Notes: generated by a model from the sequence alone, not told the origin. A stretch of DNA of 64,000 nucleotides from Parcubacteria group bacterium M6-OD1-1 (GCA_003056085.1 LSNK01000001.1:8481-72480), one strand, 5' to 3'; shown: positions 7,820 through 54,352, counted from the stretch's first letter. Numbers and translations: made by a program.

Positions 7820-7990
7820 GGTTTCTAAAATTGAGGTCATGTCTCCGCTAAGACTATGGCAAGCAGTATAAAATTTGTTTGAGTTGAGTGCGATTTGAGG
7901 AAGAAATAAGAAGTGAAACAAGCTGTACTAAAGGTACAGCGAGTAAGCTTCGCAACTTCTGACGAAAAAGCGTGCCAATTCAAATAAATT
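7820..7990 (+). repeat. Dispersed structured repeat, copy A (core 7897-7986)
   Basis: Shares ...GAGG.AAA..AAGTGAAA..[hairpin GCTGTAC-TAAAG-GTACAGC]..GAGTAAGC...GACGAAAAAGCGTGCCAATT with copies B-F. It abuts the stop codon of the ferredoxin gene. Confidence 0.7.
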
Positions 7991-8257
7991 TTATGGGAAG
8001 ATTATGTTTCCGTCTTCATCTTCTAATATAATAGCTTTAGTCGGGCAAGATTGCGCCGCAAGCAAAATAGTTTCATCGTCCAAATTTGTTTGGAGTTCTT
8101 TTTTTTCTGTTTCTTCAGATCTTTTCTTCCCGTTTTTTAATAAGATAACCGCTTTATTCTCATCGTCAAGCTCAAAAACTTCAGGAGCCACGACAACACA
8201 AGATGCCGCCCCTATACACAAATCTCTGTCCACTATAATTTTTTTTATTTTTTTCAT
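7991..8257 (-). CDS. Ferredoxin (single [4Fe-4S] cluster type)
   Basis: CIGAASC...AAQSCP resembles archaeal/Thermotoga-type mono-cluster ferredoxins. Confidence 0.7.
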   Translation of the reverse strand: MKKIKKIIVDRDLCIGAASCVVVAPEVFELDDENKAVILLKNGKKRSEETEKKELQTNLDDETILLAAQSCPTKAIILEDEDGNIIFP

Positions 8258-8317
8258 ATTATTTTTTAATTCTTAAGATATTAAACCTCAAACTCTTCTC
8301 CGTTTTTTAAAGCAATC

Positions 8318-9181
8318 TTATTCCTCCGGGACACCCTCTCCTTTTCCAATTTTTCTAAAACTTCCCTTACCAAAAGTATCTTCTATTAATCTGCCAATTG
8401 CCAACATTCTTCCATTTACCTTAGCATTAATGAATAGTTTTACAATATCCTCCCTATTTGAAAACTTATCTTTATTCAATTCCCAAAGTTTATTTATGAG
8501 AGAATTTATTTTATCTATTTCATCTCCTTTATAAAATTTCAGAGAACTTCTTTCTCCGTTGCTTACTTGCTCTATTTCATCTTTAAAAATCTCATTTTTC
8601 AAAACAATATTATGATAATATTGTTTTGTCATAAGTTCAGTTATGGCTTCATCAAAATCTTCAAAAAACTCCTCTTTGCCATCTCTGGACACTACTTTAA
8701 ATCCACTGCGATATTCACTTTCTGCATGATCATCTCCTTTAATTTTTTGTAAAACAACAATAGATTTTGCATGGATAAACTCATGAAACAATATTAAAGA
8801 AAATTCTATGTCAGACTTTAACCTATCAACTAAAATACCGCCTCTAACTGCAGAATGAGCTCCTGTAGAAAGCCTGCCTTCAGTGTACTCATTAGTGCCC
8901 CCATTTTTTAAAATATGGATATTTTCAATTGGAACTTCAAATACATTATCTTTTTTTAAACTTGATATGTATTCAGAAGCTTCCTTTTGAGTAAAATTTA
9001 TCACCTCTAAATCTCTTTCTGTTTTTTCTAATTCAAGGTCTTTGATATTTTCTTCATTTGCATCCTTATTAAGTAATGTTTCAGAAAACATAGATAAAGA
9101 AGCATCAAAAGCTTCTTTATCTTTTCTTTGTTCTTGTGGAATACCCACTACATTATCTATATGAGAATTAAATTTTTCCAT
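8318..9181 (-). CDS. Hypothetical protein with an HEXXH motif (SLILFHEFIHAKS)
   Basis: 287-aa ORF; possible metallopeptidase-like fold, but only the short motif is seen. Confidence 0.5.
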   Translation of the reverse strand: MEKFNSHIDNVVGIPQEQRKDKEAFDASLSMFSETLLNKDANEENIKDLELEKTERDLEVINFTQKEASEYISSLKKDNVFEVPIENIHILKNGGTNEYTEGRLSTGAHSAVRGGILVDRLKSDIEFSLILFHEFIHAKSIVVLQKIKGDDHAESEYRSGFKVVSRDGKEEFFEDFDEAITELMTKQYYHNIVLKNEIFKDEIEQVSNGERSSLKFYKGDEIDKINSLINKLWELNKDKFSNREDIVKLFINAKVNGRMLAIGRLIEDTFGKGSFRKIGKGEGVPEE

Positions 9182-9248
9182 ATATTAAAGAATACTTAAA
9201 ATTTAGCATTTTGTAAAACCAATTTAAAATTAAAATATAAAATTTTAA

Positions 9249-9420
9249 GATTTCTAAAATTGAGCACAGGTCGCAGCCTCCCGTTTTTATCCAAGAGCGC
9301 AGCGATTGGTTTTAAAACGCAGTGCTATCAGTATAAAAAGGAAGAGTGATGCTGAGCTGTATTTATAGATACAGTGAAGTTGAGCGATGAGTTTTTAGCA
9401 AGAGATGTGCCAATTTTGAA
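9249..9420 (+). repeat. Dispersed structured repeat, copy B
   Basis: GCTGTAT-TTATAG-ATACAG hairpin; ...TTTTTAGCAAGAGATGTGCCAATT 3' part. It shares TTTCTAAAATTGAG and CAGGTCGCAGC 5' segments with copies A and C. It abuts the nifU stop. Confidence 0.7.
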
Positions 9421-9424
9421 AATC

Positions 9425-10120
9425 TTATCCGAAATACTTTTCTTTATAAAAACGAAGCAGCTGTTCCGCCTCCGGAATACAAACAGGGTCACCAGTTCCC
9501 ACTTTTGTTTTTTTTTGAAGTTTTTCAAAAGTATCTGCTCCTTCAAGCACCGCTTCTTCAATATCTTTATCTGTTACATTTAAAACTTTATCTATAACTT
9601 TTTTGCCTTCCACTTTTATTCTGTCGTTTTGTCCTGTTCTTCTAAAAAAATCATTAATGGCGCTTTGAAGCGCTTTGTCTCCTAAAACAGAGCAGTGAAT
9701 TTTCCTGTTTGGAAGACCTCCTAATCTTTCCATTATGTCTTGTGGTTTTATCTTCAAAGCATCCTCCACTTTCATGCCTCCATTTTCCAAAAGCATAACA
9801 GAAAGCATAGATGTTGAAGCAATAGCGGACGCGCATCCGAAGGTCTGCCATTTTGCATCTTTTATTTTCTCTGTTTTTTCATCCACCAAAAGCCAGATTT
9901 TCATCATATCTCCGCACGCAGGAGAACCAACCATACCCAAAGCGTTGTATTTAAACTTTCCTTCCATGTCGGTCGTCAAAAAATTCCTCGGATTAAAAAA
10001 ATGATCTTTTACATTTTCCGTGTAAACCCATTTTTCTTTTTTATCATAAGAAACAACATCGGATTCACTTCTTTTATTTTTTTTATTTTCGTTTTTCATA
10101 AAATATATTCTAAATTTCAA
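9425..10120 (-). CDS. nifU: Fe-S cluster assembly scaffold, NifU/IscU family
   Basis: GSPACGD and FGCASAIAS IscU motifs; adjacent to the cysteine desulfurase gene. Confidence 0.8.
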   Translation of the reverse strand: MKFRIYFMKNENKKNKRSESDVVSYDKKEKWVYTENVKDHFFNPRNFLTTDMEGKFKYNALGMVGSPACGDMMKIWLLVDEKTEKIKDAKWQTFGCASAIASTSMLSVMLLENGGMKVEDALKIKPQDIMERLGGLPNRKIHCSVLGDKALQSAINDFFRRTGQNDRIKVEGKKVIDKVLNVTDKDIEEAVLEGADTFEKLQKKTKVGTGDPVCIPEAEQLLRFYKEKYFG

Positions 10121-10123
10121 ATT

Positions 10124-11335
10124 TTAAAGCTTCAACTTACTCATGTCTATTTTTGTCGGTGATATTTTTCTTAAATTTTCAACCACCCCCGGAAGTTTTT
10201 CCAAAACATAATCAATATCTTCTTCTGTTGTGTATCTTCCAAGAGCAAACCTCAAACTTCCATGAGCCGCCTCATACGGCAAACCAATCGCTAAAATAAC
10301 ATGCGAAGGGTCAAGGCTGTGTGAAGTGCAGGCAGAACCCGTTGAAGTATAAATTCCGTATTGATCCAAGTGAAGTATCAAAGCTTCACCTTCAATATCC
10401 AAAATCGTAATATTTATATTATTCGGCAAACGTTTCTCCGGATGTCCGTTTAAAAAAGTTTTTGGAATAGTTTTTAAAATTTCTTCTTTTAATTTCTTGC
10501 CTAATTTCAAAAGCCTTTCTGTTTCTTCTTCTTTTTTTTCATCTGCTAATTTAAGAGCTTTTGTGAGCCCCACGATTCCTGCTATATTTTCCGTTCCCGA
10601 TCTTAAATTTTTCTCCTGACCGCCACCATAAACCAATGGTTCTATTTTAACTCCTGTTTTTAAATATAAAATACCAATACCCTTCGGACCGTATATTTTA
10701 CTTCCATTTAAAGTAAGCATGTCCACCCCAAGGTCATTTATATTCAAGTTCAAATAACCCGCAGCCTGACATGCATCTGTATGAAAGTAAGGAAATTGTG
10801 TTTTGTTTTCTTTTTTGAAGTTTTTAATAACTTCAGCAATTTCAGAAATAGGCTCAATAGTTCCTATTTCATTATTGGCATACATTATAGAAACCAAAAC
10901 TGTATCTTTCCGTAATGCATTTTTTACATCTTTTGGATTCACCAAGCCATATTTATCCACCGGAAGATATGTGACTTCAAATCCTTCTTTTTCCAGCTTC
11001 TCGCAAGGATGAAGCACCGCATGATGTTCAATTTTGGAAGTTATAATATGATTCTTCTTTTCTTTATTTTTTCTTGCAGATCCTAAAATAGCCAAGTTGT
11101 CCGACTCCGTGCCTCCTGAGGTAAACAAAATCTCATCCGGACGAACACCTCCCAAAATTTTGGCTATTTCTTCCCTCGCTTCGTCAATAACCATTTTAGA
11201 TTCATGTCCAAGCTTATACATACTTGAGGGATTGCCGTAATGTTCAGAAAAATACGGCAACATAGCCTCCAAAACTTTGGGGTCTGTTTTTGTTGTTGCT
11301 GCATTGTCTAAATATACTTCCTTTGTTGTTTTCAT
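10124..11335 (-). CDS. nifS: Cysteine desulfurase (NifS/IscS)
   Basis: PLP-dependent class V aminotransferase features; full length ~400 aa. Confidence 0.9.
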   Translation of the reverse strand: MKTTKEVYLDNAATTKTDPKVLEAMLPYFSEHYGNPSSMYKLGHESKMVIDEAREEIAKILGGVRPDEILFTSGGTESDNLAILGSARKNKEKKNHIITSKIEHHAVLHPCEKLEKEGFEVTYLPVDKYGLVNPKDVKNALRKDTVLVSIMYANNEIGTIEPISEIAEVIKNFKKENKTQFPYFHTDACQAAGYLNLNINDLGVDMLTLNGSKIYGPKGIGILYLKTGVKIEPLVYGGGQEKNLRSGTENIAGIVGLTKALKLADEKKEEETERLLKLGKKLKEEILKTIPKTFLNGHPEKRLPNNINITILDIEGEALILHLDQYGIYTSTGSACTSHSLDPSHVILAIGLPYEAAHGSLRFALGRYTTEEDIDYVLEKLPGVVENLRKISPTKIDMSKLKL

Positions 11336-11561
11336 TTAATATTACTGCTAATTTTAATCTTTAATTTAATACTAATAAGAATTAAATAATAAGATAAAGA
11401 AACAAGACACGATAACCAAGCAACAAGCAAATTTCAAGAAACAATAATCAAAACGAGCCGTGTTTGTAATTTGTTGTTTGATTATCGCAGCTTGTTTGTT
11501 ACTTGTTTTTTTGTATCTTGGTTATTTCTTAAAAATTCTTTATTTTTAACTCTTAATTTTT

Positions 11562-11957
11562 TTATAAAATATCTTTTAAACTTATATTGCTCAATGTATC
11601 ATCTACACTTTTTTTCAACTTGCTCCATACTACTCTCGTTTTACATCCTTTTTCTTTCCCGCACTTGTGTCCGGAAAGGCATTTTACCGGAGCGGTATCT
11701 CCTTCAAAAATATTAATTATGTTTAAAATATTAATCTCTTCCGGGGATTTCAAAAGCATATAACCTCCGTTTCTTCCCGCCTTTGACTTTATGATTTTCT
11801 GTTTTTTTAAAAGCGCGGCTATTTCTTCAAGATACCCGTAAGATATATTTTCTTTTTTTGATACTTCCGCAAGAGAAACGACTCTTCCTTTACAAGATGC
11901 AATATACGCCAAAAGACTTAGCGCATATTCACTCCTTGTTGAAACTTTAAAAAACAT
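11562..11957 (-). CDS. iscR: Rrf2-family transcriptional regulator (IscR-like)
   Basis: TRSEYALSLLAYIA HTH; C-terminal Cys cluster; sits upstream of nifS-nifU. Confidence 0.85.
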   Translation of the reverse strand: MFFKVSTRSEYALSLLAYIASCKGRVVSLAEVSKKENISYGYLEEIAALLKKQKIIKSKAGRNGGYMLLKSPEEINILNIINIFEGDTAPVKCLSGHKCGKEKGCKTRVVWSKLKKSVDDTLSNISLKDIL

Positions 11958-12121
11958 AGATTAAATCTAATTCCAAGTTAATAGCTGTGAGTTTAATATA
12001 TAATTTTTAAAAAGTCAACTACCATTCTTAAATTAGGCTGAATATCCATAACTTGATTCTTTTAAAAAAATAATGCACAATACTTCCAGTATTTATTCAT
12101 GCAACCTTGGAGGTTAGCAGT

Positions 12122-12232
12122 GTGAAAAAAATTAAAAATAGAGCAAAGATTAAAAACGCGGCCAAAAGAAATCATCTCAACAAGCGCAGGGAAAAAATAA
12201 TCCTGAAACTCCAAAGACAACAACTCCAATAA
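12122..12232 (+). CDS. Small basic protein (36 aa, GTG start), weak resemblance to the N-terminus of ribosomal protein S20
   Basis: GGAGG sits 9 nt upstream of the GTG. VKKIKNRAKIKNAAKRNHLNKRREKIILKLQRQQLQ; a strong terminator follows immediately. Confidence 0.3.
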   Translation: MKKIKNRAKIKNAAKRNHLNKRREKIILKLQRQQLQ

Positions 12233-24272: not shown

Positions 24273-25317
24273 TTTCCTCCTTTAGGAAATTATTGCAACC
24301 TGCCACAGTTGCGAAAAAGTTTTTCTCAGGGTGGCTGTATCCTGAGAAGTATATCTACCCCTTCTTAGTTAGGGTATAAATTCTTCCTCATAAAGAGGTT
24401 TCTGGTAATCTCGGGCGGTTTAAGTCCGGGGTTGCCAGCCGATCTCCTTACGAAAACGGTTGATGAGTTGTATTTTATTATACGACTCTGCACTATCCGT
24501 TAAAAAGTTTGCTTGCATTTTAACGGCACAGATGACCCATCTTAGCAAAACTATTGAAAAGCTGAATAACTTTTCAGATTTTATCAAAAGGTTATTTTCA
24601 GTCTCTACTCTCTCCTCATTTTTGCTTCTTTGCAAAAAGAAAATAAAGACAAACTTCTAATAATATCTAACAAAGAACAATTTTTTCCCTTTTTATTAAG
24701 AGAACAACAGAGATGATACGAGATATTTAAAGTGTTTAATATGATTTCACACCCAATATTTCACACTCTTTCCTCTCTGTTGTTTTTCCAACAAATCTTT
24801 CGATTCTATGTTAAGATACAAAAAAAGCAGTTGAGAATCTTTTTCCAATAATATGAGGAAAGAGACTTTCAACTGCCTTCTAAAAACAATCAATAATATA
24901 TGTTTTCTGTATATTGTCTATATAACATAGATTATACATACATTTTTTATTTTACTTCATTTTTATACTGGTTTGTTTCCAGTCTCTCTCCTCAAAGAAT
25001 TTTTTATTTATTTTTCAAAGTTCCTTCTTTTACTGATTTGTCTATCTTTACTGTTTTTTCACAATATCATATTTTTTAAAATCTGTCAAGTATTTTTCTT
25101 TTCTGATTTATTAACGTACTTATATACTAACATAGTTTATATATACTGTCAAGGGTTTTAAAATAACCTTTCTAATGCTATTATTTTCTCATATTTTACA
25201 TTTAAGTGTAATTCTTCAGAAAAATTAACCATACAAGTAAGGATTTGAGTTTTCGAATACACTTTTTGTGAATGTTATTTAAAAGTTAACAATACAAGAA
25301 CATCAAAATCAAAAGTT

Positions 25318-25482
25318 TGAACGCAAGTCTGAAAAGTGAAATAAGTTTTATTATAACTAAAGTATGAGGGGCTTGAATATTTAAGCGCAGTTTGAGGCAA
25401 AAATGAAGAGTGCAACGAGTCGTACTGATAGGTACGACGAGTAAGCGATAAATTTTTAACGACAAAATGCACCAAATATGCA
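25318..25482 (+). repeat. Dispersed structured repeat, copy F
   Basis: GAGGCAAAAATGAAGAGTGCAACGA[GTCGTAC-TGATAG-GTACGAC]GAGTAAGCGATAAATTTTTAACGACAAAATGCACCAAAT. The hairpin shows a compensatory T/A change. It lies just upstream of ychF. Confidence 0.7.
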
Positions 25483-25497
25483 AGACCACAAAATATT

Positions 25498-35897: not shown

Positions 35898-35937
35898 ATT
35901 ATTAGCTTGTTAGCTTTTTAGCTTGTTAGCTTTTTAG
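35898..35937. repeat. 41-nt leader element TTATTAGCTTGTTAGCTTTTTAGCTTGTTAGCTTTTTAGA (2.5 x AGCTTGTTAGCTTTTT), abutting the rpoC start codon
   Basis: An identical copy abuts the start of the glutaredoxin-like gene at 53491-53530. Confidence 0.6.
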
Positions 35938-35986
35938 ATGCCTAATAAGCTAATTACCAATAAACTAATTCCCGTTTTAATTATTT

Positions 35987-40687: not shown

Positions 40688-40857
40688 TTCGCTCTCCTTG
40701 TCATAAAAAAGAACAGGGTTATTTTTTACATATTATAATAAATTTATTGAAATATCAACATTTTTAATGCTAATACTACCAAGCTCTTTAATAAGTTGAA
40801 ATCTATGTTTCAAATTCAAATTTACCATACACTCAAAAATTTAAGATTTTGAGTGTA

Positions 40858-40950
40858 ATCCGAGGCAAAAGTCGTAAGTGAAATTAAGCCGTGCTTAATG
40901 GTACGGCGAAATGAACGTACGATTTTTAACGAAGGAGTACGCCAAAATAT
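40858..40950 (+). repeat. Dispersed structured repeat, copy E
   Basis: GAGGCAAAAGTCGTAAGTGAAATTAA[GCCGTGC-TTAATG-GTACGGC]GAAATGAACG...TTTTTAACGAAGGAGTACGCCAAAAT. It abuts the ftsW stop. Confidence 0.7.
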
Positions 40951-40959
40951 TAAGTTTTT

Positions 40960-42054
40960 TCAACTTCGGAGTTTAATGCTTTGGATAAGTCCAAGAGCAA
41001 TAAACAAAGACAACAAAGAAGATCCTCCGTAACTTAAAAATGGAAAAGTAATTCCTGTTACCGGCATTATTCCTAAATTCATTCCCGCGTTTATTATTAT
41101 TTGAACAAATATCCAACTTGCAACTCCTACGCAAAAAAGGCGCGCAAAATTATTTTCAGCAAAAATCGCCGTTTTTATAATTCTATACATTATAATGGAC
41201 AGAAGCGAAAAAATAATGATGACACCTAAAAAACCAAATTCCTCAGCAACTGAAGCAAACATGAAATCAGTGTGAGCTTCCGGTAAAAATCCAAACTGAA
41301 CTTGCGAACCAGAGCCCAACCCCTTACCAAAGAACCCTCCATCTCCAATGGCTATCATTGACTGAATAACATTATAACCCGCTCCTTGCGGGTCGTTGTA
41401 CGGATTTAAAAATGTCATTATCCTATCTTTTTGGTAAGGCAGAAAAACACTTGTCCATGCAAATGAAAATACCAAAATACCCAACAAGGCTAAAATGAGA
41501 AGATGTTTTTTAGAAATACCGGATACCAGCATCATAAATATCCAGATTCCCAAAATAATTATAGCAGACCCTAAATCCGGCTGCATAAGCACTAAAATTA
41601 ATGGCAAAGCTAAATATATTCCGGAAACAATAATATTGGAAAATCTATGCATTTCAACATGTCTTTGTGAAAAATATTTAGCAAATAAAATTATTAGCGC
41701 GATTTTTGTGAATTCAACAGGTTCTATAGAGAAAAATCCTACTTTTATCCACGCAGAAGCTCCCCTGATATCAGAACCAATAAAAAAAAGCGATATTAAA
41801 ACAAACAAAGACAAGACATAAAATATAATAGCTGCGTAAGAATTGTTCTTAAAAAATCTATAATCAAAAAAAGCTATGGCAAACATAACAGAAACTCCAA
41901 TAAACAAAGACACGAGTTGTTTAGTAAAAACAATTGACATCTCGGGATTATTCTGCACAATGGCAAAAAGCTCTAAAATCCCTAAAAAAGCCAAAAATAA
42001 AACAGACCCTATAAGGATCCAATCCATCTTTTTTAATTGAGAAAGTAGATTCAT
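40960..42054 (-). CDS. ftsW: FtsW/RodA/SpoVE family peptidoglycan polymerase
   Basis: Ten TM segments; conserved SEDS motifs. Confidence 0.9.
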   Translation of the reverse strand: MNLLSQLKKMDWILIGSVLFLAFLGILELFAIVQNNPEMSIVFTKQLVSLFIGVSVMFAIAFFDYRFFKNNSYAAIIFYVLSLFVLISLFFIGSDIRGASAWIKVGFFSIEPVEFTKIALIILFAKYFSQRHVEMHRFSNIIVSGIYLALPLILVLMQPDLGSAIIILGIWIFMMLVSGISKKHLLILALLGILVFSFAWTSVFLPYQKDRIMTFLNPYNDPQGAGYNVIQSMIAIGDGGFFGKGLGSGSQVQFGFLPEAHTDFMFASVAEEFGFLGVIIIFSLLSIIMYRIIKTAIFAENNFARLFCVGVASWIFVQIIINAGMNLGIMPVTGITFPFLSYGGSSLLSLFIALGLIQSIKLRS

Positions 42055-43472: not shown

Positions 43473-43623
43473 AATTTCAATTTTAAATTCCTAATCTCTA
43501 ATCTCTATTTTTTATATAATATCATATTTTTCTTTTCATATAAAGCAAAAAACACCCTCGCCGGATGCTTATCACATAAACCTTCAGTATTTTTAAATTT
43601 GTCCCGCACCAAGAAAATAAGAA

Positions 43624-43740
43624 ACTTGCAATGACCTACTTTCTCACAGCCTAACGCTGCAATATCATCGGCGGAGTACATCTTTACGACTCTGTTCGGA
43701 ATGGGAAGAGGTGGTTTCTATACCCTATTATCACAAGCTT
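43624..43740 (-). rRNA. rrf: 5S rRNA
   Basis: Reverse complement contains CCACCTCTTCCCATTCCGAACAGAGTCGTAAAG...GCCGATGATATTG, i.e. the 5S loop-B/C consensus. It lies downstream of the 23S on the same strand. Confidence 0.75.
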
Positions 43741-44169
43741 CTTGTTTTCTTCGTACGAAACAAATTTTAAATGTCCTTGTTTTTTTTCTTTGATCACTAA
43801 ATACAGTAAAGTTAACCTAAGGATAACCCTTAAATAACAATGGAAAAGTTACTTCCTTCTCTTACATTTTTCTGCGATTGGCTTATTAGTATTGCTCGCC
43901 TGAACACTTCACAGTGCTTACAGCTGCAACCTATCAACGTGATAGTCTTTCACGGGCCTATAGGATAAATCCAACGAGACCTAATCTTGGGTTGTGCTTC
44001 GAGTTTAGATGCTTTCAACTCTTATCACGACCGAACTTAGCTACCCAGCAATGCCCTTGGCAGGACAACTGGTACACCAGAGGTTCGTCCACTCCGGTCC
44101 TCTCGTACTAGGAGCAGCTTCCCTCAAGTCTCTACGCCTACAGCAGATAGAGAACCAACCTGTCTTACG

Positions 44170-44668
44170 CAAATGTAGCTACTAAAAATTTATTCAGTAA
44201 CGCCGCCATTACTGGCGGGATCGGACTATATCTTCATCCATCTATTTTAGATGGAGGCTAACGTTTAGTCTCTACGGGTAGTTATGAATTTTATTGAGGA
44301 GCCAACGATATTGTTGTTGGCTCTACTTAGGGTAGGAACATAGCTAAACATATTCCACATTGTGGTTTCTGCAAACGCTCATGTTCAGCACATCGGCATA
44401 TCCCAGCTATTTATCCCGTGCGTCCGCGGGATCCTTCGGGCCCCGCCTCAAGTGTGCCGGCGTGTTAATTCACACCGCTTGTCTTAGAGAATAGATATCC
44501 TCAATAAAATTCATAACCTTCCCTCGGTATTGTCCATGTTATACAACATTAGGATTTCACCGATATAAGTTAGCTTCTCATACAAAATCACTTTTGTATG
44601 CCGCCGTATATGATGTCAAACCTCGGATTCAGACTGTAAAACATCCTTTCTTTTAAAAAAGGTGCTTT
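44170..44668 (-). mobile_element. Group I intron without ORF in 23S rRNA at the E. coli U2593/C2594 equivalent
   Basis: Exon junction GGGTTCAGACCGT | ...~499 nt... G | CGTAAGACAGGTTGG aligns to GGGUUUAGAACGU|CGUGAGACAGUUCGG. The 5' exon ends in U and the intron ends in G. Confidence 0.65.
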
Positions 44669-44737
44669 ACGGTCTGAACCCAGCTCGCGTACCGCTTTAA
44701 TTGGCGAACAGCCAAACCCTTGGAAGCTTCTCCACCT

Positions 44738-44768
<31 letters not shown>

Positions 44769-44804
44769 GAACCTTGCCGTCGATATGAACTCTTAGGCAA
44801 GACC

Positions 44805-44841
<37 letters not shown>

Positions 44842-45330
44842 TTCGCACTTTCTACAAAGTTACGTCGGATCACTAAGTCCTGCTTTCGCAACTGCGCGAC
44901 TTGTTAGTCTTGCAGTAAAGCCGGCTTATGCCTTTACACTATCAGTCCGATTTCCATCCGGACCTAGCCGACCTTAATGAACGCCTCCGTTACCATTTGG
45001 GAGGCTAGCGCCCCACTAAAACTGTCTACCAGCCACTGTCCCCTTAAGGTTTTACCTTAAAAGTTAGTATTGCAATTATAAGAGAGTGGTATTTCACTGA
45101 CGACTCCATGTCACCCGAAAGCGACACTTCAAAGTCTCCCACCTATGCTACGCAATTAAAACAACAATACAATAACAAGCAACAGTAAAGCTCCCGGGGT
45201 CTTTCTGTCTAGCTGCAGGAAGAGGGCATCTTCACCCCCACTGTAATTTCACCGAGTGATTCGTTGAGACAGTTCCCAAGTCGTTACGCCATTCGTGCAG
45301 GTCGGAATTTACCCGACAAGGAATTTCGCT

Positions 45331-46072
45331 CGATCTTTGTTACTGATTCTACCTAAATAGAATTGGTGTAGTCATTTCTGCTACACTCTCTATGTCGCCA
45401 TAGAGTCCGGACTATATCATCACGCTTTTTTACAGCGCGCCTGGCGTATAGTCTCTGAGGATTCTAAAAATCTGGATTGTTTTTTTCGATTCATTAACTC
45501 TATTTTTTTTGCTATTTTCTTCATTCCTTTCATGGAAAGATGTTCTTTTTTCGTCATTATTTCCATTATTTCAGCAAAAATTTTGAAATCTTTTCTTTTT
45601 GCTGTTTTTAAAGAATTACTTCTGAAAAACGGAATTATTTTTTCATTTAAATCATCCATAGATCTTACACAAAATCTTAAAAGATTTTCTTTATGATCAT
45701 CATATCGATTATTTTTAAAAATTTTTCCGCAATTAAAATAGTCTTTAAATAAAGTTAAAGCATCTAAGCTTTTCTCCCCTTGAGTTATTACAAACTCAGG
45801 GAAAACTTGCCATCCAAGTTTGGAAGTTTTGTTTTTTATAATACTAACAGAGAAACAACCTTCTCCATCAGTAAAACCAATTATCCAACCTATAATTTTT
45901 AGCCTTTCCTGCTGATTGTCTGCACTGGATACATTTTCACTATAATAGTTTTTCATATCTATGGAATAATTATACCATAGATATTTTTCTATTATTAGTA
46001 GTACCAGATACTACAGGGTTTTACCCACAGGTGTTCCAGCATATGGCCAGGTTTTACTAAGGCAAGAAATTC
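45331..46072 (-). mobile_element. Group I intron in 23S rRNA at the E. coli U1931/A1932 equivalent (helix 69-71 region), carrying a LAGLIDADG homing-endonuclease gene
   Basis: Exon junction ...TAACTATAATCGTTCTAAGGT | ~742 nt ...AAAGATCG | AGCGAAATTCCTTGTCGGG aligns to CUAAGGU|AGCGAAAUUCC. It follows the U ... G rule. Confidence 0.75.
45420..45956 (-). CDS. LAGLIDADG homing endonuclease (single-motif, I-CreI-like)
   Basis: IIGWIIGFTDGEGCF LAGLIDADG motif; 178 aa; located inside the 23S intron. Confidence 0.85.
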   Translation of the reverse strand: MKNYYSENVSSADNQQERLKIIGWIIGFTDGEGCFSVSIIKNKTSKLGWQVFPEFVITQGEKSLDALTLFKDYFNCGKIFKNNRYDDHKENLLRFCVRSMDDLNEKIIPFFRSNSLKTAKRKDFKIFAEIMEIMTKKEHLSMKGMKKIAKKIELMNRKKQSRFLESSETIRQARCKKA

Positions 46073-47844
46073 ACCTTAGAACGATTATAGTTATCGCTGA
46101 CGTTCACCGGCGCTTCGGGCGTTAGCAGTATAATAAATTATACCACCTTCACCGTTAACGTTCCGGCACTGGTCAGGCGTCACCCCCTATACATCCTCTT
46201 ACGAGTTAGCAGAGAGCTGTGTTTTTGGTAAACAGTCGCCTGGGATACTTTCGCTGCGGCCTTAACTGAAAAACTGGATTTTGAGGGGAAGTGTACTCTT
46301 ACGCTTCCCGGATTTTAAAAATGGTCGGAAAGGATTACGCAGACATACTGCATATTTTGGGGTATTTAATCCCAAAACAGATATATCATTTTCGGTAATC
46401 CTCACCGTTTAAGCTTTACTCAAAATCCAGCTTCCCAGCAAGGCAAGCCTTATTCCGAAGTTACGGCTGCTTTTTTGCCGAGTTCCTTAACGAACTTTCA
46501 CTCGTTCACCTTGGTCTTCTCGACCTATCTACCTGTGTCGGTTTACGGTACGTGCACACTAAAAATATTCTTAGAAGTTTTTCTCGGTCGCCAGCTCATC
46601 TGAATTGGTGAAAAAACACCTCTTCTCAACTCTTGGAGTTGTGATTAAACACAGCTTTCCGGATTTACCTGGAAAACCTCCTTAAGCAAAGAACGTAAAT
46701 CCAATAATACGCTCAAACTACTTAGCCACGTCACTCCATCGATTTTTAGCATGGTGCAGGAATATTAACCTGCTGTCCATCAGCTCCGCCGTTCGGCATC
46801 GCCTTAGGTACGACTAACCCTTGGTTGATTGTCATTGCCAAGGAAACCTTAGATTTTCGGTGTACTGGGATCTCACCAGTATTGCGGTTACTTATGCCAA
46901 CATTCTCACTTCCTGACGCTCCAGCATGGCTCACGCCAACACCTTCACAGCAGACAGGAACGCTCCCCTACCACACCGCTGCAAAGCAGCGATATCCACA
47001 ATTTCGGTAGCATACTTTAGCCCCGGTACATTTTCGGTGCAAAATCTCTAAACTAGTGGGCTGTTACGCACTCTTTAAAGGATGGCTGCTTCTAAGCCAA
47101 CCTCCTAGCTGTTTAAGAAATTCTACCGCCTTTAATCACTTAGTATGCATTTTGGGACCTTAATTTGTGGTCTGGACTCTTTTCCTTTTGACCATGGAGC
47201 TTATCCCCCACAGTCTGACTCCTGAGCTATATTGAATGGAATTCGGAGTTTGATTGGGATAGACAGCTTGCGCCATTCTAACTCATCCAGTGCTCTACCT
47301 CCATTCATAAACACTCAAGGCTATACCTAAATATATTTCGGGGAGAACCAGCTATTACCAAGTTCGATTAGCTTTTCACTCCTTACCACAGGTCATCCGA
47401 ACGTGTTGCACAGCGTATCGGTTCGGGCCTCCCTTTGATTTTACTCAAAGTTCACCCTGCCCATAGTAAGCTCACTTGGCTTCGGGTTTTATGCATGCTG
47501 CATAGACTTGTCACTTAATGATTCTTTCTGCTGCAATTAATATTTTTCTACTACGCAAACCTCACCACTCGTCAGTGAATAATTTTATTCACTTCCTCGT
47601 GTTTCAGCTTGCTCATGACGAAAAATATCAATTTCGCTACGAAAAATCCATTAAGAGACAAGTCTATTTCGCCCTATTAAGACTTGGTTTCCCTACGCCT
47701 ACCCTCTTTGCGAGGTTAAACAGGCAACATACATAAACTCGTTGGCTCATTCTCCAAAAGGCACGCCGTCACCCTGATAAATCAGAGCTCCGACTAATTG
47801 TAAGTATATAGTTTCAGTTCTATTTCACTGCCCTCACCGGGCTA

Positions 47845-47885
<41 letters not shown>

Positions 47886-48654
47886 TAAAAAGTATTTAGC
47901 CTTGGGAGAGTAGTTCTCCCGGATTCCTACGGGGTTGTCTTTCCCCGCAGTACTTAGGTACAAATACTTAGAGTGTTTACTAATTTTCATTTACGGGACT
48001 ATTACCCTCTATGGTTGTCCTTTCCATGACAATTCAACTAAAAAGCAAAACTTGTTTTACTCTATTTTAAATAAATTTAAAAACGCATTTGCCCTGCAAC
48101 CCCTAATATGTGTAATAAATTATACTTATTAGGTTTAGGCTTCTACCGTTTCGCTCGCCGCTACTAAGGTAATAACTATTGTTCTCTTTTCCTCTGGTTA
48201 CTGAGATGTTTCACTTCACCAGGTTCGCTGCTTTTGATTTTAACTCAAAAGCTATCTTGATTTTACTCAAGATGGGTTCCCCCATTCGGAAATCTCCGGA
48301 TCAAAGGTTGCTGAGCACCTCACCGAAGCTTATCGCAGCCATGCCACGTCCTTCATCGCCTTTTTATGCCTAGGCATCCACTATATACCCTTATTCCGCA
48401 AAAAAATGAAAGTTAAGGAATAACTTTTCTTTTGTTTCACTCAATAAAATTTTCTCCTGCATAGAAGAAAAAATTATAATTTTTGTTATTGATAACCACC
48501 ATAAAATAAATCTTATTATTTTATAATGATTAAAGGAATAACTTTACTGTATTTAATTATCAAAGTTCTCACAGGCTCCAAACCTGTCCTAAAATAAATT
48601 TTGTTATGAAATTTATTTTAGGACAAACTTGGTACATTTTGTTTTGTATAAAGG

Positions 48655-49837: not shown

Positions 49838-49997
49838 ATGAATACTAACCTTAAAAAAAACCAAGGAGCAATTTGAAGCAAGATGCATCAATGATGGGCT
49901 CTGCCCAAAATGCTTGGAAAAGTTGAAAAAAGAAATATCTTCATGCGGAAGTGAATACGAACTAATCTGCATAAATTGCAATCTTATAATAGACTAA
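49838..49997 (+). CDS. Small zinc-ribbon protein (~52 aa) interrupted by a frameshift in an A8 run (49853-49860)
   Basis: AAGGAG RBS, then ATG; MNTNLKK, then with 7 As ...TKEQFEARCINDGLCPKCLEKLKKEISSCGSEYELICINCNLIID (CxxC...CxxC). With 8 As the frame stops after 13 codons. Confidence 0.4.
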
Positions 49998-50124
49998 GGT
50001 TTTGTCTAAATGTATTTGAAAAATCCATTCTAAAAATATAGCGTGGATTTTTTATTTATTTTTTAACTGTTTTTCGTAAATCTTTATTAAGGGTTAAAAT
50101 TTATGAAAATAATTATTTTAGAAA

Positions 50125-50574
50125 TTATTCTTCCAACTCAGATATTTTCTGAATTCTTCTTTTATGTCTTTCCGCTTCTGAAAATGGAGTTTGAAGCCAA
50201 AGCTCAACCGCTTTTTTTACTTCTCCTTCGCTCAAAAAACGAGCACCCAAAGACAGAACATTTGCATCATTGTGCTCTCTTGAAAGGGATATAATTTCAT
50301 CGGGACCACCGTAATAAACAACAGCTCTTGCGCCTTTTATTTTATTTGCCGCTATTGCTTCTCCTTGCCCGGAACCGCCCAAAACTATCGCTCTTGAACC
50401 CTGATCGCTTGCAGCAAATCCAGCCGCTTTTGAAATAAAATCAGGATAATCGTCCGACTCGTCATAGGAAAGAGCTCCCAAATCTTCAACATCATAGCCT
50501 TTGTCCACCAAAAACCCAACAAGTTTTTCTTTAAGTTCAAATCCTGCATGATCTGCTGCTAAATATATTTTCAT
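50125..50574 (-). CDS. rpiB: Ribose-5-phosphate isomerase B
   Basis: MKIYLAADHAGFELKE...; RpiB/LacAB family. Confidence 0.9.
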   Translation of the reverse strand: MKIYLAADHAGFELKEKLVGFLVDKGYDVEDLGALSYDESDDYPDFISKAAGFAASDQGSRAIVLGGSGQGEAIAANKIKGARAVVYYGGPDEIISLSREHNDANVLSLGARFLSEGEVKKAVELWLQTPFSEAERHKRRIQKISELEE

Positions 50575-50584
50575 AGATTATAAA

Positions 50585-51610
50585 TTATAATAATTTAGAA
50601 ACTTCCACCACATGTTTAACTAAAGAATAAGTATACCCCATCTCATTGTCATACCATGCTAAAATCTTAACAAAATTTCCATCAACTACTTTTATAAAAG
50701 GCAAATCAACTATTGAAGCGTATGGAGTTCCTATAATATCAGTGGATACAAGCTGTTCATCAGAAACTGAAAAAATTCCCTGCCATTTTTCTTCTTTTGC
50801 CGCATTTCTGAAAATCTCTTGAAGCTCCTCAACGGAGGTATCTCTTTTGGCTAAAAAAGTAAAATCTGCTATTGAACCGGAAATAACAGGAACACGCATA
50901 GCAACTCCGTCAAATTTTCCTGCAAGTTCTTTCACGGCTTTTGTTACAGAAATTGCTGCGCCTGTTGTTGAAGGTATTATATTTTGCGCTGCAGCTCTTC
51001 CTTTTCTCCAGTCTTTCGCATCCGGACCATCAACTATTTTTTGAGTTGCCGTATAACCATGAATTGTATTTAAAAATGCCTTCTCTACTCCCACAGTTTC
51101 TGACATTATTTTCGCAACAGGTGATGTTGAGTTTGTAGTGCAAGATCCATTTGAAGAAACTAAACATGTTTTAAGCTCATCTTCATTTATACCCATTAAA
51201 ATTGTTTTACCCGCTTCTCCTTCTTCACCCTTCCCCGGAGCTGAAATAACGACTCTTTTTGCGCCGGCATCAATGTGCGCCTTTGCATCTTCATATTTTG
51301 TAAAAAATCCGGTGGATTCAACAACGATATCAATTCCAAGGTCGCCCCAAGGAAGATTATTTGGGTCTTTTTCTGAAACGAAATTTACCTTCTTTCCACC
51401 CACCACCAAATAAATTTTATCTCCATCTTTTTCTGTTGATATCTCAAGATCTGATTTTTTTTGTGCAGAATCATACTTTAAAAGGTAAGCAAGATTTTCT
51501 ACATCACCAAGATCATTTATCGCAACTACATCAAGCTCCGAATTTTCGAAAGCTACTTTAAAAAATTGTCGGCCTATTCTTCCAAAGCCATTTATCGCTA
51601 CTTTTTTCAT
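50585..51610 (-). CDS. gap: Glyceraldehyde-3-phosphate dehydrogenase
   Basis: INGFGRIGR NAD-binding motif; catalytic SCTTN region. Confidence 0.95.
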   Translation of the reverse strand: MKKVAINGFGRIGRQFFKVAFENSELDVVAINDLGDVENLAYLLKYDSAQKKSDLEISTEKDGDKIYLVVGGKKVNFVSEKDPNNLPWGDLGIDIVVESTGFFTKYEDAKAHIDAGAKRVVISAPGKGEEGEAGKTILMGINEDELKTCLVSSNGSCTTNSTSPVAKIMSETVGVEKAFLNTIHGYTATQKIVDGPDAKDWRKGRAAAQNIIPSTTGAAISVTKAVKELAGKFDGVAMRVPVISGSIADFTFLAKRDTSVEELQEIFRNAAKEEKWQGIFSVSDEQLVSTDIIGTPYASIVDLPFIKVVDGNFVKILAWYDNEMGYTYSLVKHVVEVSKLL

Positions 51611-51647
51611 AAAATTTTTAACTTTTAATTTTTATAATATTTTTAAA

Positions 51648-52112
51648 TTAACATTTGTCCGATTTCTTCCAGTTTTTCTTTATAAAAGAATCTATTTTTT
51701 TCGTTCTTTTAAATCCCCATTCCGCCGCTTTTTTATCGGCGTCAATTTCTAATTTATTTCCATCACTCTTTCTCCAGTTCCTTCCTTGTGTGGCATGTCC
51801 AAGCTCATGAGCTACAACAAATCTTAAAACATCTATCGGAATCCCATTTGGAATTGTCATCTGCATTATCTTAAATTTTCCTTTGGGATTTGGAAAATGC
51901 ATCATTTGACCCAACACTCCTTCATGTAATGCAACTATTATCAAATTTTTTGTCAGCAATAGAAAATCCTCCTTTGGCATATCAGAAAAAACATCCTCAA
52001 ATGCTTTTTTGGTTCTTTTATAAAACTGGAGGCTTTGCTGGGATTTCATAAAATCCTTAACCTCTTTTTTTGTCGGACTATCCTTCATTTTTAGTGATTG
52101 CTTTTTAACCAC
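51648..52112 (-). CDS. Putative zinc metallopeptidase (HEXXH; ImmA/IrrE-like)
   Basis: FVVAHELGHATQG motif; 154 aa. Confidence 0.45.
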   Translation of the reverse strand: MVKKQSLKMKDSPTKKEVKDFMKSQQSLQFYKRTKKAFEDVFSDMPKEDFLLLTKNLIIVALHEGVLGQMMHFPNPKGKFKIMQMTIPNGIPIDVLRFVVAHELGHATQGRNWRKSDGNKLEIDADKKAAEWGFKRTKKIDSFIKKNWKKSDKC

Positions 52113-53017
52113 TTATAACATTGAAGAGCCGCTTTCGCCCCCTCACCCGCTGCAATGACAGCTTGTCTTTCTTCTATGTCTGTTACATCTCCGGCCGCAA
52201 AAATTCCAGCTTTTGAAGTTGCATTTGTTCTTGGATTTATCACGATTTGCCCAAATTGATTTTTTTCACAAAAATCTCCCAAAAAATCAGTGTTTGGTAT
52301 GGAGCCGATAGAAACAAAAACTCCTGATACTTTCAACTCCTTATCTTCGTTGGATTCTTTGTCTTTGTAAATCAGAGAAGTTACAAATTGATCTCCTTTT
52401 ATTTCTTTTGTTTCAGCATTAAAAACAAATTCAACTTTTGATTCCTTTTTAAGTTTTTCATATGTTATCGGATCTCCTTTCACTTCACCTCTTACCAAAA
52501 TATAAATTTTATCGGCATATTTTGTAAGCTGCATAGCGGCATCAAGCGCTGTATTTCCCGCCCCCACCACAACAACATCTTTGCCGGAAAAAAGCGGTGC
52601 GTCACAGGTAGCGCAATATGTAACACCTTTATTGCTGAATTCTTCTTCTCCCGGGACTCCAAGTTTTCTTGGCTTTGCCCCCATCGCAAGTATTACAGAT
52701 TTTGCTTTAATTTTTTCTCCATCTTTATTTTCTAAAATAAAGAATTCTTTATCTTCTTCATTTTTTTCCAATTGTATTTTTTCTGCAACAAAACTTCTAA
52801 CTTCTGCTCCAAAGTCTGTTGCTTGTTTTCTAAAAACATCTAAAAGTTTAGCTCCGTTAAGATCGGTGTATCCCGGGTAATTCCAAATCTCAGGCTGCAA
52901 AGCCGTCTGACCTCCTTTTTCATGCTCCAAAACCAAAGTATTTAATTTTTTTCTTGACGCATAAATAGCTGCTGTCATTCCTGCGGCACCACCGCCAATA
53001 ATTAAAACATCGTACAT
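52091..53017 (-). CDS. trxB: Thioredoxin-disulfide reductase
   Basis: GGGAAG FAD motif; CATC redox centre. Confidence 0.9.
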   Translation of the reverse strand: MYDVLIIGGGAAGMTAAIYASRKKLNTLVLEHEKGGQTALQPEIWNYPGYTDLNGAKLLDVFRKQATDFGAEVRSFVAEKIQLEKNEEDKEFFILENKDGEKIKAKSVILAMGAKPRKLGVPGEEEFSNKGVTYCATCDAPLFSGKDVVVVGAGNTALDAAMQLTKYADKIYILVRGEVKGDPITYEKLKKESKVEFVFNAETKEIKGDQFVTSLIYKDKESNEDKELKVSGVFVSIGSIPNTDFLGDFCEKNQFGQIVINPRTNATSKAGIFAAGDVTDIEERQAVIAAGEGAKAALQCYKWLKSNH

Positions 53018-53151
53018 TTTGTTATACTTATCAGTTTATTAGAATGTTAGGATATTAGACATCTTATTGGGCTAAAATCCTAAAAAACTAAAAACTTTTA
53101 GATTTAAAAATAAAACTATCAACTATATAATATAAATTTTTTTAAATTTGA

Positions 53152-53250
53152 ATGCAGGTCGCAGCTAAAAAGGAAGAGCGATGGCGAGCCGTATTAAAAA
53201 TACGGTGAGCCGAGCGATGACTTTTTAGCAAGAGATGCGCCAAATATGGA
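53152..53250 (+). repeat. Dispersed structured repeat, copy C
   Basis: CAGGTCGCAGC...AAAAAGGAAGAGCGATGGCGA[GCCGTAT-TAAAAA-TACGGTG]AGCCGAGCGATGACTTTTTAGCAAGAGATGCGCCAAAT. It abuts the stop of the glutaredoxin-like gene. Confidence 0.7.
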
Positions 53251-53255
53251 AATAA

Positions 53256-53489
53256 TTACAACTTGAGTAATTCTTTCAACCTTTCCCCATCAAAACCGAC
53301 CATCATTTCATTATCAACAAAAATAACCGGGACACCCATTTGTCCGGATTTTTCAACCATTTCTTCTCTTGCTTTTTCATCTTCTGCAACATTAAAATCT
53401 GTATATTCTATTTTATTTTCATTTAAAAATTCTTTTGCCATTTTGCAATAAACACATGCAGGTGTTGAATATATTGTTACTTTTGCCAT
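53256..53489 (-). CDS. Glutaredoxin-like protein (NrdH/YruB type, CVYC)
   Basis: MAKVTIYSTPACVYCKMAKEFL thioredoxin-fold N-terminus. Confidence 0.8.
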   Translation of the reverse strand: MAKVTIYSTPACVYCKMAKEFLNENKIEYTDFNVAEDEKAREEMVEKSGQMGVPVIFVDNEMMVGFDGERLKELLKL

Positions 53490-53490
53490 C

Positions 53491-53530
53491 TTTATTAGCT
53501 TGTTAGCTTTTTAGCTTGTTAGCTTTTTAG
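53491..53530. repeat. Second copy of the 41-nt AGCTTGTTAGCTTTTT leader element
   Basis: Identical to 35898-35937. It abuts the start codon on the minus strand. Confidence 0.6.
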
Positions 53531-53770
53531 AAAAACTAACTGAACCATCAACCAACAAGGTTTTATTTAAATTATTATTGATTGTATTTTATCACATTGG
53601 ATAGTTATTGCAAATAATCTATCCATAAAAAAACCACCCATTAATCCGGGTGGTGGTTTTAAATTACGCAAACTTACGAAGTTCTTTTTCTACACGGTTT
53701 ACAGAGCGGCGGAAAGAAGATAGGTCTATCATGCCATGCACACTATTTCTTTCTTCTTTATAAATAAACT

Positions 53771-53858
53771 TTTCTCCATAAAATTTCCCACCGATGGCGA
53801 TTTAACTAAAATAGTTTATCCTTTTTGGGATGGTGTTGAGTCAAAAAGCAGCGTTATA
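53771..53858. repeat. ~88-bp inverted duplicate of an internal segment of the gene at 54367-55536 (matches 54816-54906 in reverse complement)
   Basis: Both copies encode FPTDGDLTKIVYPFWDG(V/I)ESKSSVIKRF. Confidence 0.7.
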
Positions 53859-54206
53859 AAAAGATTCTCTCATATTTCAAAAGACAAAAGAAAAATCATT
53901 ATCTATGATAATGGTACAGAATTTTCTTCTTTTAAATTCATTAAAAGGTATACAAAAATGATGATATACTTTGCATATCCTTATCATTCTTGAGAAAGAG
54001 GAACAAACGAGAATACAAATGGACTTTTAAGACAATTCTTTCCTAAAAAGAATCCTTTTGCTAATCTTAAACAATCTGATATTAAAAAAGTTGAAAAGCT
54101 CATTAACGGTAGACCCAAAAAGAGACATAACTATCTTAGTCTTTATGAAGTGTTTTATGAGAAAAGATGTTGCACTTTGGTTTAGAATTTAAGACTGTTT
54201 TAAGTA
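53859..54206 (+). pseudogene. IS30-family transposase, C-terminal remnant (degraded)
   Basis: IIYDNGTEFSS...YFAYPYHS*ERGTNENTNGLLRQFFPKKNPFANL...INGRPKKRHNYLSLYEVF matches the IS30 DDE C-terminus, but it is interrupted by a stop and a frameshift. No N-terminal part or inverted repeats were found. Confidence 0.65.
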
Positions 54207-54261
54207 CGCAGAATAAAATTTACCATGCCACACAATATAAAATTTTCAAAATTTAGTGCAA

Positions 54262-54352
54262 TTCGAGGAAAAGGTGAGGGGTGAAGTGAGCCGTATTAAA
54301 GATACGGCGAACGAACCCAGAAACTTTTGACGAAGAAGTGTGCGAATTTTGG
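54262..54352 (+). repeat. Dispersed structured repeat, copy D
   Basis: CGAGGAAAAGGTGAGGGGTGAAGTGA[GCCGTAT-TAAAG-ATACGGC]GAACGAACCC...TTTTGACGAAGAAGTGTGCGAATTTT. It abuts the stop of the gene at 54367. Confidence 0.7.

Follow-up and report, generated by a model that had tools for sequence, protein, structure and literature searches.

We analysed a 64-kb stretch of DNA (64,000 nucleotides, hereafter the window) from Parcubacteria group bacterium M6-OD1-1 (GCA_003056085.1, LSNK01000001.1:8481-72480), in which six intergenic loci share a hairpin-forming element. [quoted passage not shown] A preliminary description of the loci had offered three readings, i.e., a small RNA or an element of 3′ untranslated regions, a MITE, or a family of protein-binding sites; the terminal inverted repeats, the 5-bp target duplications and the differences in presence and absence between close relatives support the second of these. 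A few copies outside the window look domesticated.

The window was searched with a covariance model (R1) built from the six copies. The model matched exactly six loci, all on the plus strand, at 7885-7990 (copy A), 9319-9425 (copy B), 25382-25487 (copy C), 40850-40957 (copy D), 53149-53255 (copy E) and 54253-54358 (copy F), as expected from the earlier claim of six homologous intergenic loci. The six copies scored 80.5-105.6 bits, the next best match being the reverse strand of copy C at 28 bits, and the mean column identity among the aligned copies was ~67%. No open reading frame (ORF) common to the copies was seen, in agreement with their description as non-coding.

Terminal repeats and target-site duplications

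In the flanks of most of the new copies, the hairpin ended in terminal inverted repeats. Outside the window genome these were TAGGACTTACG...CGTAAGTCCTA, with TAGGACTTACG as the terminal repeat of GC-richer genomes; several genomes carried TAGGACTTACGCG...CGCGTAAGTCCTA, and AT-rich genomes carried AT-rich variants. In the window genome, which has a GC content of 33% over the window, the termini were TAAAATTT.../...AAATTTTA and TAAGATTT.../...AAATCTTA. Target-site duplications were assessed in 51 distinct insertions with recognisable termini. A perfect 5/5 duplication flanked 25 of them, compared with 1.9% by permuted flanks and 0-2 of 51 at shifted offsets. The duplicated 5-bp target was AT-rich, and ATAAT, ATCAT, ATAAC, GGCTA, CAAGT and ACCTA were among the duplications. 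The preliminary description had favoured a selected structure and had named terminal inverted repeats with target-site duplications as the finding that would speak against a selected RNA; both are present in the wider family.

A second element of ~140 nt in the assembly JBAZQK01 (locus L017, 3568-3710; locus L021, 3094-3235) had the same terminal repeat, TAGGACTTACGCG, around an unrelated interior (GTCATCCTGAAG…CTCAGAATGAC), and one of its copies was flanked by the 5-bp duplication AATTC. Because the two elements share the terminal repeat and differ in the interior, the mobilising enzyme probably recognises the ~17 terminal bases. The second element points to a single enzyme that may serve both.

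Bacterial MITEs measure up to ~400 bp. They are defined by terminal inverted repeats, target duplications, a long stem-loop and the lack of a transposase, and they are usually shorter than 200 bp (PMC3184786). The elements described here are likewise short and without a transposase gene, end in terminal inverted repeats, show flanking target-site duplications and occur as dispersed copies that show gain and loss.

Distribution among genomes

We scanned 185,579 genomes, one per species, with the pattern AGCCGTR-N5-8-TACGGYGA-N12-16-TTTTRRCRA. The scan returned 104 stretches, nearly all from metagenome-assembled genomes (MAGs) of Patescibacteria; the groups matched were Saccharibacteria, Paceibacterota, Kaiserbacteria, Kerfeldbacteria, Doudnabacteria, Azambacteria, Gracilibacteria, Peribacteria and Peregrinibacteria. 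The covariance model confirmed 118 full-length copies (92 + 26) in ~40 assemblies and found no copies in five of the pattern stretches, which came from Hymenobacter, Vibrio, Acidobacteriota, Bryobacteraceae and Alphaproteobacteria records. Four of the ~40 copy-bearing assemblies stand under non-CPR MAG labels (labels as recorded); in one of these (L033), the flanks were 68-72% identical to CPR loci. JBAZQK01 had ~26 near-identical copies in its sampled part; JAHFLU01, CAYTCJ01 and CAZFTX01 are further MAGs with high copy numbers. A copy was also present in a Nanosyncoccus MAG (L059).

No copies were found in viral contigs, phage records or plasmid records, and a blastn search of 5,426 complete E. 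coli genomes came back empty. A comparison with Rfam had been proposed for the copies at the outset. Rfam 15 placed no family at any copy in the window, whether at the gathering threshold or at E<=10, and six loci with representative copies gave no match at E<=1. Full-text literature searches returned no description of a MITE in CPR bacteria and no paper with the terminal-repeat or core strings. That is, the MITE family is apparently undescribed. The previous statement that the elements were not recognised as a known class is fair for the family, given the Rfam, literature, plasmid, phage and E. coli results; bacterial MITEs as a kind are well known.

Gain and loss near the window genome

A metagenome scan with NifU yielded 80 related loci. 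Copies were present only in the three closest relatives of the window; the other ~80 loci searched (533 kb, including five from a neighbour-protein search) had none. The locus L115 was 98-99% identical to window positions 7625-10440 and was without 9231-9418 (188 nt), i.e., most of copy B. The gap was bounded by AAAAT at 9226-9230 and 9419-9423, and L115 kept the final 9 nt of copy B's right terminal repeat, including the nifU stop codon. The termini of copy B match the terminal-repeat pattern of the lineage. Whether L115 represents a deletion or an empty site, copy B is dispensable.

L115 also has copy A, with two transitions that give G·U pairs on the plus strand, and L117 (88% NifU identity) has no copy A in the spacer between the ferredoxin and Rieske genes. 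In L116 and L117 the nifS-nifU spacer holds a copy; the corresponding spacer of the window is ~25 nt long and has none. L116 bears another copy after nifU. Among L115-L118 and the window, differences were seen at three spacers, namely nifS-nifU, the one downstream of nifU and ferredoxin-Rieske. The nifS-nifU copies (L116 3738-3843; L117 3808-3916) occupy the same site, share the same outer terminal repeat and apical loop and belong to different middle-helix subfamilies, which suggests that a hot spot was reused or that the copies underwent conversion with one another. Logan short-read contigs end within copy B, the usual fate of assemblies at repeats. An orthologous-site comparison through a 287-aa neighbour protein was set aside, its nearest relatives being only 44% identical and without synteny.

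Hairpin structure and covariation

The element is a single imperfect hairpin along its whole length of ~125 nt, with 41 pairs. Its outermost part is the ~15-bp terminal inverted repeat, with the consensus TARRAYTT... Next inward is a helix with conserved, purine-rich and mostly unpaired internal loops, TTCGAGGCAAAA on the 5′ side opposite TTTTRACRAAGAA on the 3′ side, followed by a middle helix in which the sequence is free and the pairing is kept. The apical hairpin, GAGCCGTA-loop-TACGGYGA, has tandem G·A/A·G mismatches on its flanks, a stem of 7-9 bp, a loop of 3-7 nt and no bulge. An element measures ~123-128 nt, and ~166-190 nt if it also includes an optional hairpin or an insertion. Of the two size classes, one is a basic form of 123 nt; the other, of ~166 nt, carries a further GC-rich hairpin that lies after the 3′ arm and before the right terminus.

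For the core of the six window copies, RNAalifold gave 28 pairs, with −17.5 kcal/mol on the plus strand versus −10.3 kcal/mol on the minus strand. Across 84 distinct core sequences, 90.9% of the cells were paired, compared with 70.8% in shuffled sequences and 27-42% when the partners were slid, and double-sided changes occurred in 22 of the 28 core pairs (437 cells). In a full-length alignment of 47 sequences, 37 of the 41 pairs showed compensatory changes, those of the ~15-bp outermost helix included. These values confirm, in core and full-length alignments alike, that the covariation is real and far above the controls. The preliminary description had placed it in the central hairpin; it is present there, where all four of the hairpin variants quoted are found in the sequence (GCCGTGC/GTACGGC including a G·U pair), and it extends through the whole ~125-nt hairpin rather than being limited to the centre. 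The argument drawn from compensatory changes, that the structure is selected and not decaying neutrally, is thereby strengthened. However, such changes alone do not show a host RNA function at the window copies, since the structure could be selected in the propagating element. Given the evidence for a MITE, we attribute the covariation signal to a mobile repeat and not to a new riboswitch-like RNA gene.

The six window copies and their neighbours

The six loci are homologous, and the elements extend beyond the conserved core; with the outer helix included they have the approximate spans given here, all on the plus strand. Together they make up ~1.2% of the window. Copy A (7867-7994; covariance model score 97.3 bits) is a complete ~128-nt hairpin element with the apex GCTGTAC-TAAAG-GTACAGC. 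It folds at −49.2 kcal/mol on the plus strand and −29.1 kcal/mol on the minus strand (z −7.5), and the TAA stop codon of the minus-strand ferredoxin gene (7991-7993) lies inside its right terminal helix. Just upstream, at 7809-7848 on the plus strand, is a solo left-end fragment of a B-type copy (TTTTAAGGTTTCTAAAATTGAGG...), which matches the left end of copy B at 82.5% identity across 40 nt.

Copy B (9246-9427; 80.5 bits) is E-like, and has the terminal repeats TAAGATTTCTAAAATTGAGCAC / GTGCCAATTTTGAAAATCTTA; its terminal TTA (9425-9427) is the stop codon of nifU. It folds at −52.6 kcal/mol on the plus strand (z −3.4), with the outer helix intact. Direct comparison of copies B and E revealed a 56-nt insertion in the 5′ arm of copy B (9278-9333, plus strand), which contains CCCGTTTTTATCCAAG and is missing from copy E, a copy elsewhere 82% identical to copy B. 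Insertions at the equivalent 5′ internal loop also occur in other genomes, e.g., at L023 and L043. The shared 5′ modules noticed previously resolve into three, namely the left terminal repeat of the B-type copy (TTTCTAAAATTGAG, also present in the solo fragment at 7809-7848), the 5′ arm of the B/E subfamily (CAGGTCGCAGC) and part of the copy B insertion. A recurrence of one module at 60040-60075 had also been reported, and amounts to a similarity of only ~25 nt, a 16-mer search alone being at chance level. At 60046-60075, ~25 nt (GCAGSCTCCCGTTTT(T)ATCCAAG) are common with the 56-nt insertion and are followed by a terminator-like hairpin, AAAGGTGTCAGGAACCTTTTTT; this site could be what is left of the inserted sequence, or else a small element of its own.

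Copy C (25370-25487; 98.1 bits) lies 10 nt upstream of the start codon of ychF (25498; YchF by Pfam) in the same orientation as the gene, and folds almost equally on both strands (−33.3 and −33.8 kcal/mol on the plus and minus strands, respectively; z −3.8). Between this copy and a 136-aa minus-strand gene are ~1.06 kb (24307-25369) that contain no credible ORF and have no Rfam match at E<=10. The right end of copy D (40835-40959; 105.6 bits; −48.4 and −26.9 kcal/mol, z −7.8) directly adjoins the stop codon of the minus-strand ftsW gene (40960-40962). Copy E (53135-53257; B/E subfamily; 95.6 bits; −43.9 and −28.9 kcal/mol, z −6.9) overlaps with its right terminal helix the stop codon of a glutaredoxin-like gene (53256-53258), and has a thioredoxin-reductase gene to its left. 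Copy F (54238-54360; 104.8 bits; −48.5 and −26.1 kcal/mol, z −9.8) has the termini TAAAATTTTC...GGAAATTTTA and ends 6 nt from the stop codon of a DUF4015 gene (54367-54369).

A stop codon thus lies inside the terminal helix in copies A, B and E. The elements had been said to begin at the stop codons of minus-strand genes; the closeness is as described, and the end that abuts the gene is the 3′ (right) end. Pfam detected ferredoxin, Rieske, NifU, YchF, FtsW, thioredoxin reductase and DUF4015 (a putative glycosyl hydrolase) in the window, which backs the ferredoxin, NifU, FtsW, glycosyl-hydrolase-like and YchF neighbours named before. The glutaredoxin-like neighbour is likewise borne out by the 77-aa ORF beside copy E (53256-53489), which has the glutaredoxin-type motif PACVYC.

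Strand asymmetry, orientation and conservation in place

In 90 of 96 distinct copies, folding was more favourable for the modelled strand than for its complement, by ~7 kcal/mol (means of −31.0 vs. −24.3 kcal/mol), and this asymmetry held with sense and antisense neighbours alike. We compared the strands by folding energy because the count of G·U against A·C pairs was uninformative: it stood at 122 vs. 73, but 53 of the G·U pairs came from one conserved pair forced by the search pattern, and without it the count was 69 vs. 73. The copies lie in short intergenic spacers, where the right end usually meets the stop codon of a convergent gene, the terminal TAG or TAA can serve as that stop codon and the left end faces the start of the next gene. 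Between co-directional genes, 58 copies were antisense and 16 were sense; the right end pointed toward the 3′ end of a gene in 80 cases and toward a gene start in 38. An orientation set by replication was not supported: for copies in convergent or divergent contexts, the remainder of the locus (8-kb loci only) had no strand bias (0.45-0.52). That is, the orientation bias follows the immediate neighbours and not the wider locus.

In three pairs of orthologous copies, the element was at least as conserved as the flanking coding DNA, with identities of 93% against 86-88% (L047/L083), 83% against 80% (L047/L051) and 77% against 65-74% (L062/L086). The L047, L083 and L051 copies lie between pheS and pheT in the sense orientation. 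These three orthologues have 12 variable pairs, four of which changed on both sides and are still paired; the single-sided changes on the modelled strand gave six G·U pairs and one A·C.

Several of our observations weigh against the MITE reading. The six window copies have no recognisable target duplications, from which we take them to be old insertions; that is, they are old and diverged. We rejected L115 as an empty pre-insertion site for copy B and prefer a microhomology deletion between the AAAAT repeats, as 9 nt of the right terminal repeat remain. No transposase with the same terminal repeats was found in 1.44 Mb of CPR loci. Across the classes of the radiation the interior is no less conserved than the termini, and it also folds in a strand-specific way and has compensated changes where loci are fixed; these are features that one would not predict from a transposon of purely selfish DNA.

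The strand asymmetry, orientation and conservation in place argue for selection on one strand in single-stranded form, and for its acting at a fixed locus in some lineages. The hairpin may be needed in a single-stranded intermediate or transcript, as RNA or DNA of the modelled strand, and selection on this form could operate during propagation, in the host, or both. The orientation that survives would be the one that is least disturbing, or helpful, to the expression of flanking genes, e.g., as a 3′ or intercistronic hairpin.

We tentatively propose, as an extension to which we give clearly less than even odds, that the hairpin is more than a transposase substrate, i.e., a strand-specific RNA or single-stranded DNA (ssDNA) module that moves as a MITE and has been repeatedly domesticated by CPR hosts. 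The products of domestication would be intercistronic or 3′-end elements, such as the pheS-pheT copy kept in Gracilibacteria and Peribacteria. If this proposal is true, the conserved purine-rich loops form a protein-binding platform, and the interior is conserved across the radiation by function rather than by recent horizontal spread.

Alternative explanations

The same observations could be explained by non-mobile structured RNA genes or cis-acting RNA elements that were copied by duplication and kept for a host function. Such elements would account for the covariation through all helices, the greater stability of the modelled strand, irrespective of neighbour orientation, in 90 of 96 copies, the purine-rich internal loops, the conservation of orthologous copies relative to flanking coding DNA, and the pheS-pheT copies with their four double compensatory changes and six G·U pairs to one A·C. 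However, they would not be expected to have 5-bp duplications at half of the well-delimited insertions or terminal inverted repeats, to reach ~26 near-identical copies in one genome, to be patchy among relatives, or to have lost most of copy B in a genome 98-99% identical. Most copies are also antisense to their neighbours, no Rfam family matches, and scans found no conserved promoter or terminator. We therefore regard this explanation as unlikely. With regard to the last point, scans for a sigma-70 promoter or a terminator within the element gave no consistent site, and the six copies have upstream flanks that do not align with one another.

We also considered that the copies are ordinary intrinsic terminators or 3′-stabilising hairpins, alike by function and not by descent. 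Their position directly after stop codons and between transcription units is in keeping with this, as are the AAAA...TTTT around the inner hairpin (A-tract/hairpin/T-tract), the terminator-like score of the apical hairpin of copy A on the minus strand, and the promoter-like sites of downstream genes that lie beyond the left end in the window. However, functional likeness does not explain homology over 106-125 nt across bacterial classes, nor the duplications and terminal repeats. The T-tract is just 4-5 nt long and is itself base-paired, the pheS-pheT copies lie inside an operon in the sense orientation, and the terminator scan gave nothing at copy D and only sub-hairpins elsewhere, making this explanation very improbable.

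Protein-binding sites at the DNA level, either a sigma-54-type promoter or an operator palindrome for a dimeric regulator, were judged slightly less probable still. The consensus of sigma-54 promoters has GG at −24 and GC at −12 (TGGCAC-N5-TTGC), and the minus strand of copies B and E reads TTGGCAC-N5-TTGCT; the apex GCCGTA...TACGGC is palindromic, and the 5′ arm has an 11-nt tandem motif, GTTTGAGCCAA/GTTCGAGGCAA. However, the TTGC element is replaced by TTCG throughout most of the family, copies A, C, D and F among them, and we rejected a sigma-54 promoter because TTGCT occurs only in copies B and E, whereas A, C, D, F and most of the 118 others have TTCGT or TTTGT. In addition, both the length and the sequence of the apical spacer vary, the middle helix keeps its pairing without a fixed sequence, and the pair beside the conserved stem covaries freely (GC 37, CG 18, UA 15), which is in keeping with base pairing and not with a fixed duplex sequence being recognised.

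Descent from a catalytic or intron RNA has a negligible probability and, as regards group II intron domain V, is effectively refuted by the Rfam scans. Domain V is a 34-nt hairpin that has an AGC triad, a 2-nt bulge and a GNRA loop and lies among other intron domains. At the apex (GAGCCGTA...TACGGY), 8 + 6 nt are the same as in the lower helix of domain V of Ll.LtrB, but neither Intron_gpII (RF00029) nor a ribozyme matched (E<=10 in the window; E<=1 at the six representative loci), the stem has no 2-nt bulge, upper helix or GNRA loop, and the surroundings contain neither intron domains nor a reverse transcriptase.

Search for a mobilising enzyme

In the MITE reading, a transposase acting in trans would recognise the terminal repeats and make 5-bp staggered cuts. 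The window contains no transposase gene apart from a relic of the IS30 family. A search for an autonomous partner through extra terminal-repeat matches, half-elements and intragenomic repeats of at least 350 bp turned up only the second MITE and solo ends.

The IS30-family relic is a transposase C-terminal portion at 53895-54185 (plus strand), between copies E and F (…YDNGTEF…YFAYPYHS*ERGTNENTNGLLRQFFPK…), with an in-frame TGA at 53991-53993 in place of the conserved Trp of the family. Before it, at 53778-53894, a segment of the neighbouring DUF4015 gene (54793-54909) recurs as an incomplete inverted copy (39 aa, 82% identical). The IS30 family makes 2-3-bp duplications. We rejected the relic as the mobiliser, as its relatives are fragments and this duplication size does not fit 5 bp. 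In Kerfeldbacteria JACRFM01 (L078, 1-137), a genome that also has the MITE, a contig opens inside the C-terminal end of an IS30-like transposase, and no MITE-like terminal repeat follows its stop codon.

ISEcp1, of the IS1380 family, makes 5-bp AT-rich duplications. Its left end, CCTAGATTCTACGT, which we checked beside the annotated transposase, resembles TAGAATTTACG-type variants of the terminal repeat at ~9-10 of 12 positions in a gapped alignment. No IS1380-like gene was present in the 1.44 Mb of CPR loci. Given the weak similarity of the ends and this negative result, we do not claim membership of IS1380/ISEcp1 and treat the likeness as a lead only.

Comparison with known elements

ERIC/IRU, a MITE of Enterobacteriaceae (~127 bp), is similar to the CPR family in its size of ~125 bp, its imperfect palindrome over the whole length, its intergenic position and its presence in several genera. 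Orthologous ERIC copies are reportedly unusually conserved, and their effects on flanking mRNA are said to depend on orientation. ERIC copies are flanked by duplications (PMC3184786). The CPR family differs from ERIC in having no sequence similarity, 5-bp duplications in place of TA flanks, other terminal repeats and a patescibacterial host; ERIC itself was ruled out by the lack of an E. coli match and by the 5-bp rather than TA duplication.

Correia elements have terminal repeats of 26 bp, duplicate TA and contain an IHF site. These elements (CREE/NEMIS, Neisseria, ~104-157 bp) are short, end in terminal inverted repeats and occur in many copies next to genes (PMC3184786). Presence and absence among strains were taken as evidence of their mobility, functional motifs are possible, and their transposase is unidentified (PMC3184786). 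The CPR family differs from them in its 5-bp duplication, its conserved purine-rich internal loops and its strand-asymmetric fold; no promoter was found in scans of the CPR elements.

RUP and Nezha each have a known or proposed parent insertion sequence (IS) and TA-type targets. RUP (Streptococcus pneumoniae, 107 bp) and the cyanobacterial Nezha are non-autonomous elements of 100-170 bp with terminal repeats and long stem-loops (PMC3184786). In contrast, no parent IS was found for the CPR family in the 1.44 Mb of loci, and the family spans the classes of the radiation instead of one genus.

REP/BIME and the palindromic elements derived from IS200/IS605 (PATE) are also intergenic hairpins in which the strand matters, with a biased orientation and a frequent position after gene ends. 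They make no target-site duplication and are handled as ssDNA by HUH (Y1) transposases, and REPs measure 20-40 nt. The 5-bp duplications and the single 125-nt hairpin rule out this type. The closest known elements are the bacterial MITEs that are imperfect palindromes over their whole length, namely ERIC, Correia and RUP, and the CPR family is none of them.

Other features of the window

The 23S rRNA gene (43867-48404) is stretched to 4.5 kb by group I introns at 44202-44622 and 45388-45545; a 178-aa ORF lies inside the 23S region (45420-45956), and a 5S rRNA gene is downstream (43623-43738). With its 33% GC, a 23S rRNA gene interrupted in this way, and Zambryskibacteria- and Paceibacteria-type MAGs as the nearest relatives of a lineage-specific protein, the window resembles a CPR genome. 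The rpoC-like and glutaredoxin-like genes are each preceded, immediately upstream of the ATG, by an identical 40-nt leader, TCTAAAAAGCTAACAAGCTAAAAAGCTAACAAGCTAATAA, composed of 8-nt AAGCTAAN repeats (35899-35938 and 53492-53531, respectively; minus-strand sense).

Implications

CPR bacteria have tiny, streamlined genomes in which mobile DNA is little described. The family described here explains breaks in short-read assemblies, supplies stop codons to genes and fills intergenic spacers. It is a ready marker of strain-level gain and loss, and a handle for finding an active transposase in CPR organisms. Since it combines the hallmarks of a transposon with a compensated, strand-specific structure and with conservation at fixed loci, it offers a tractable system in which to ask how a selfish hairpin may turn into a host RNA or DNA signal.

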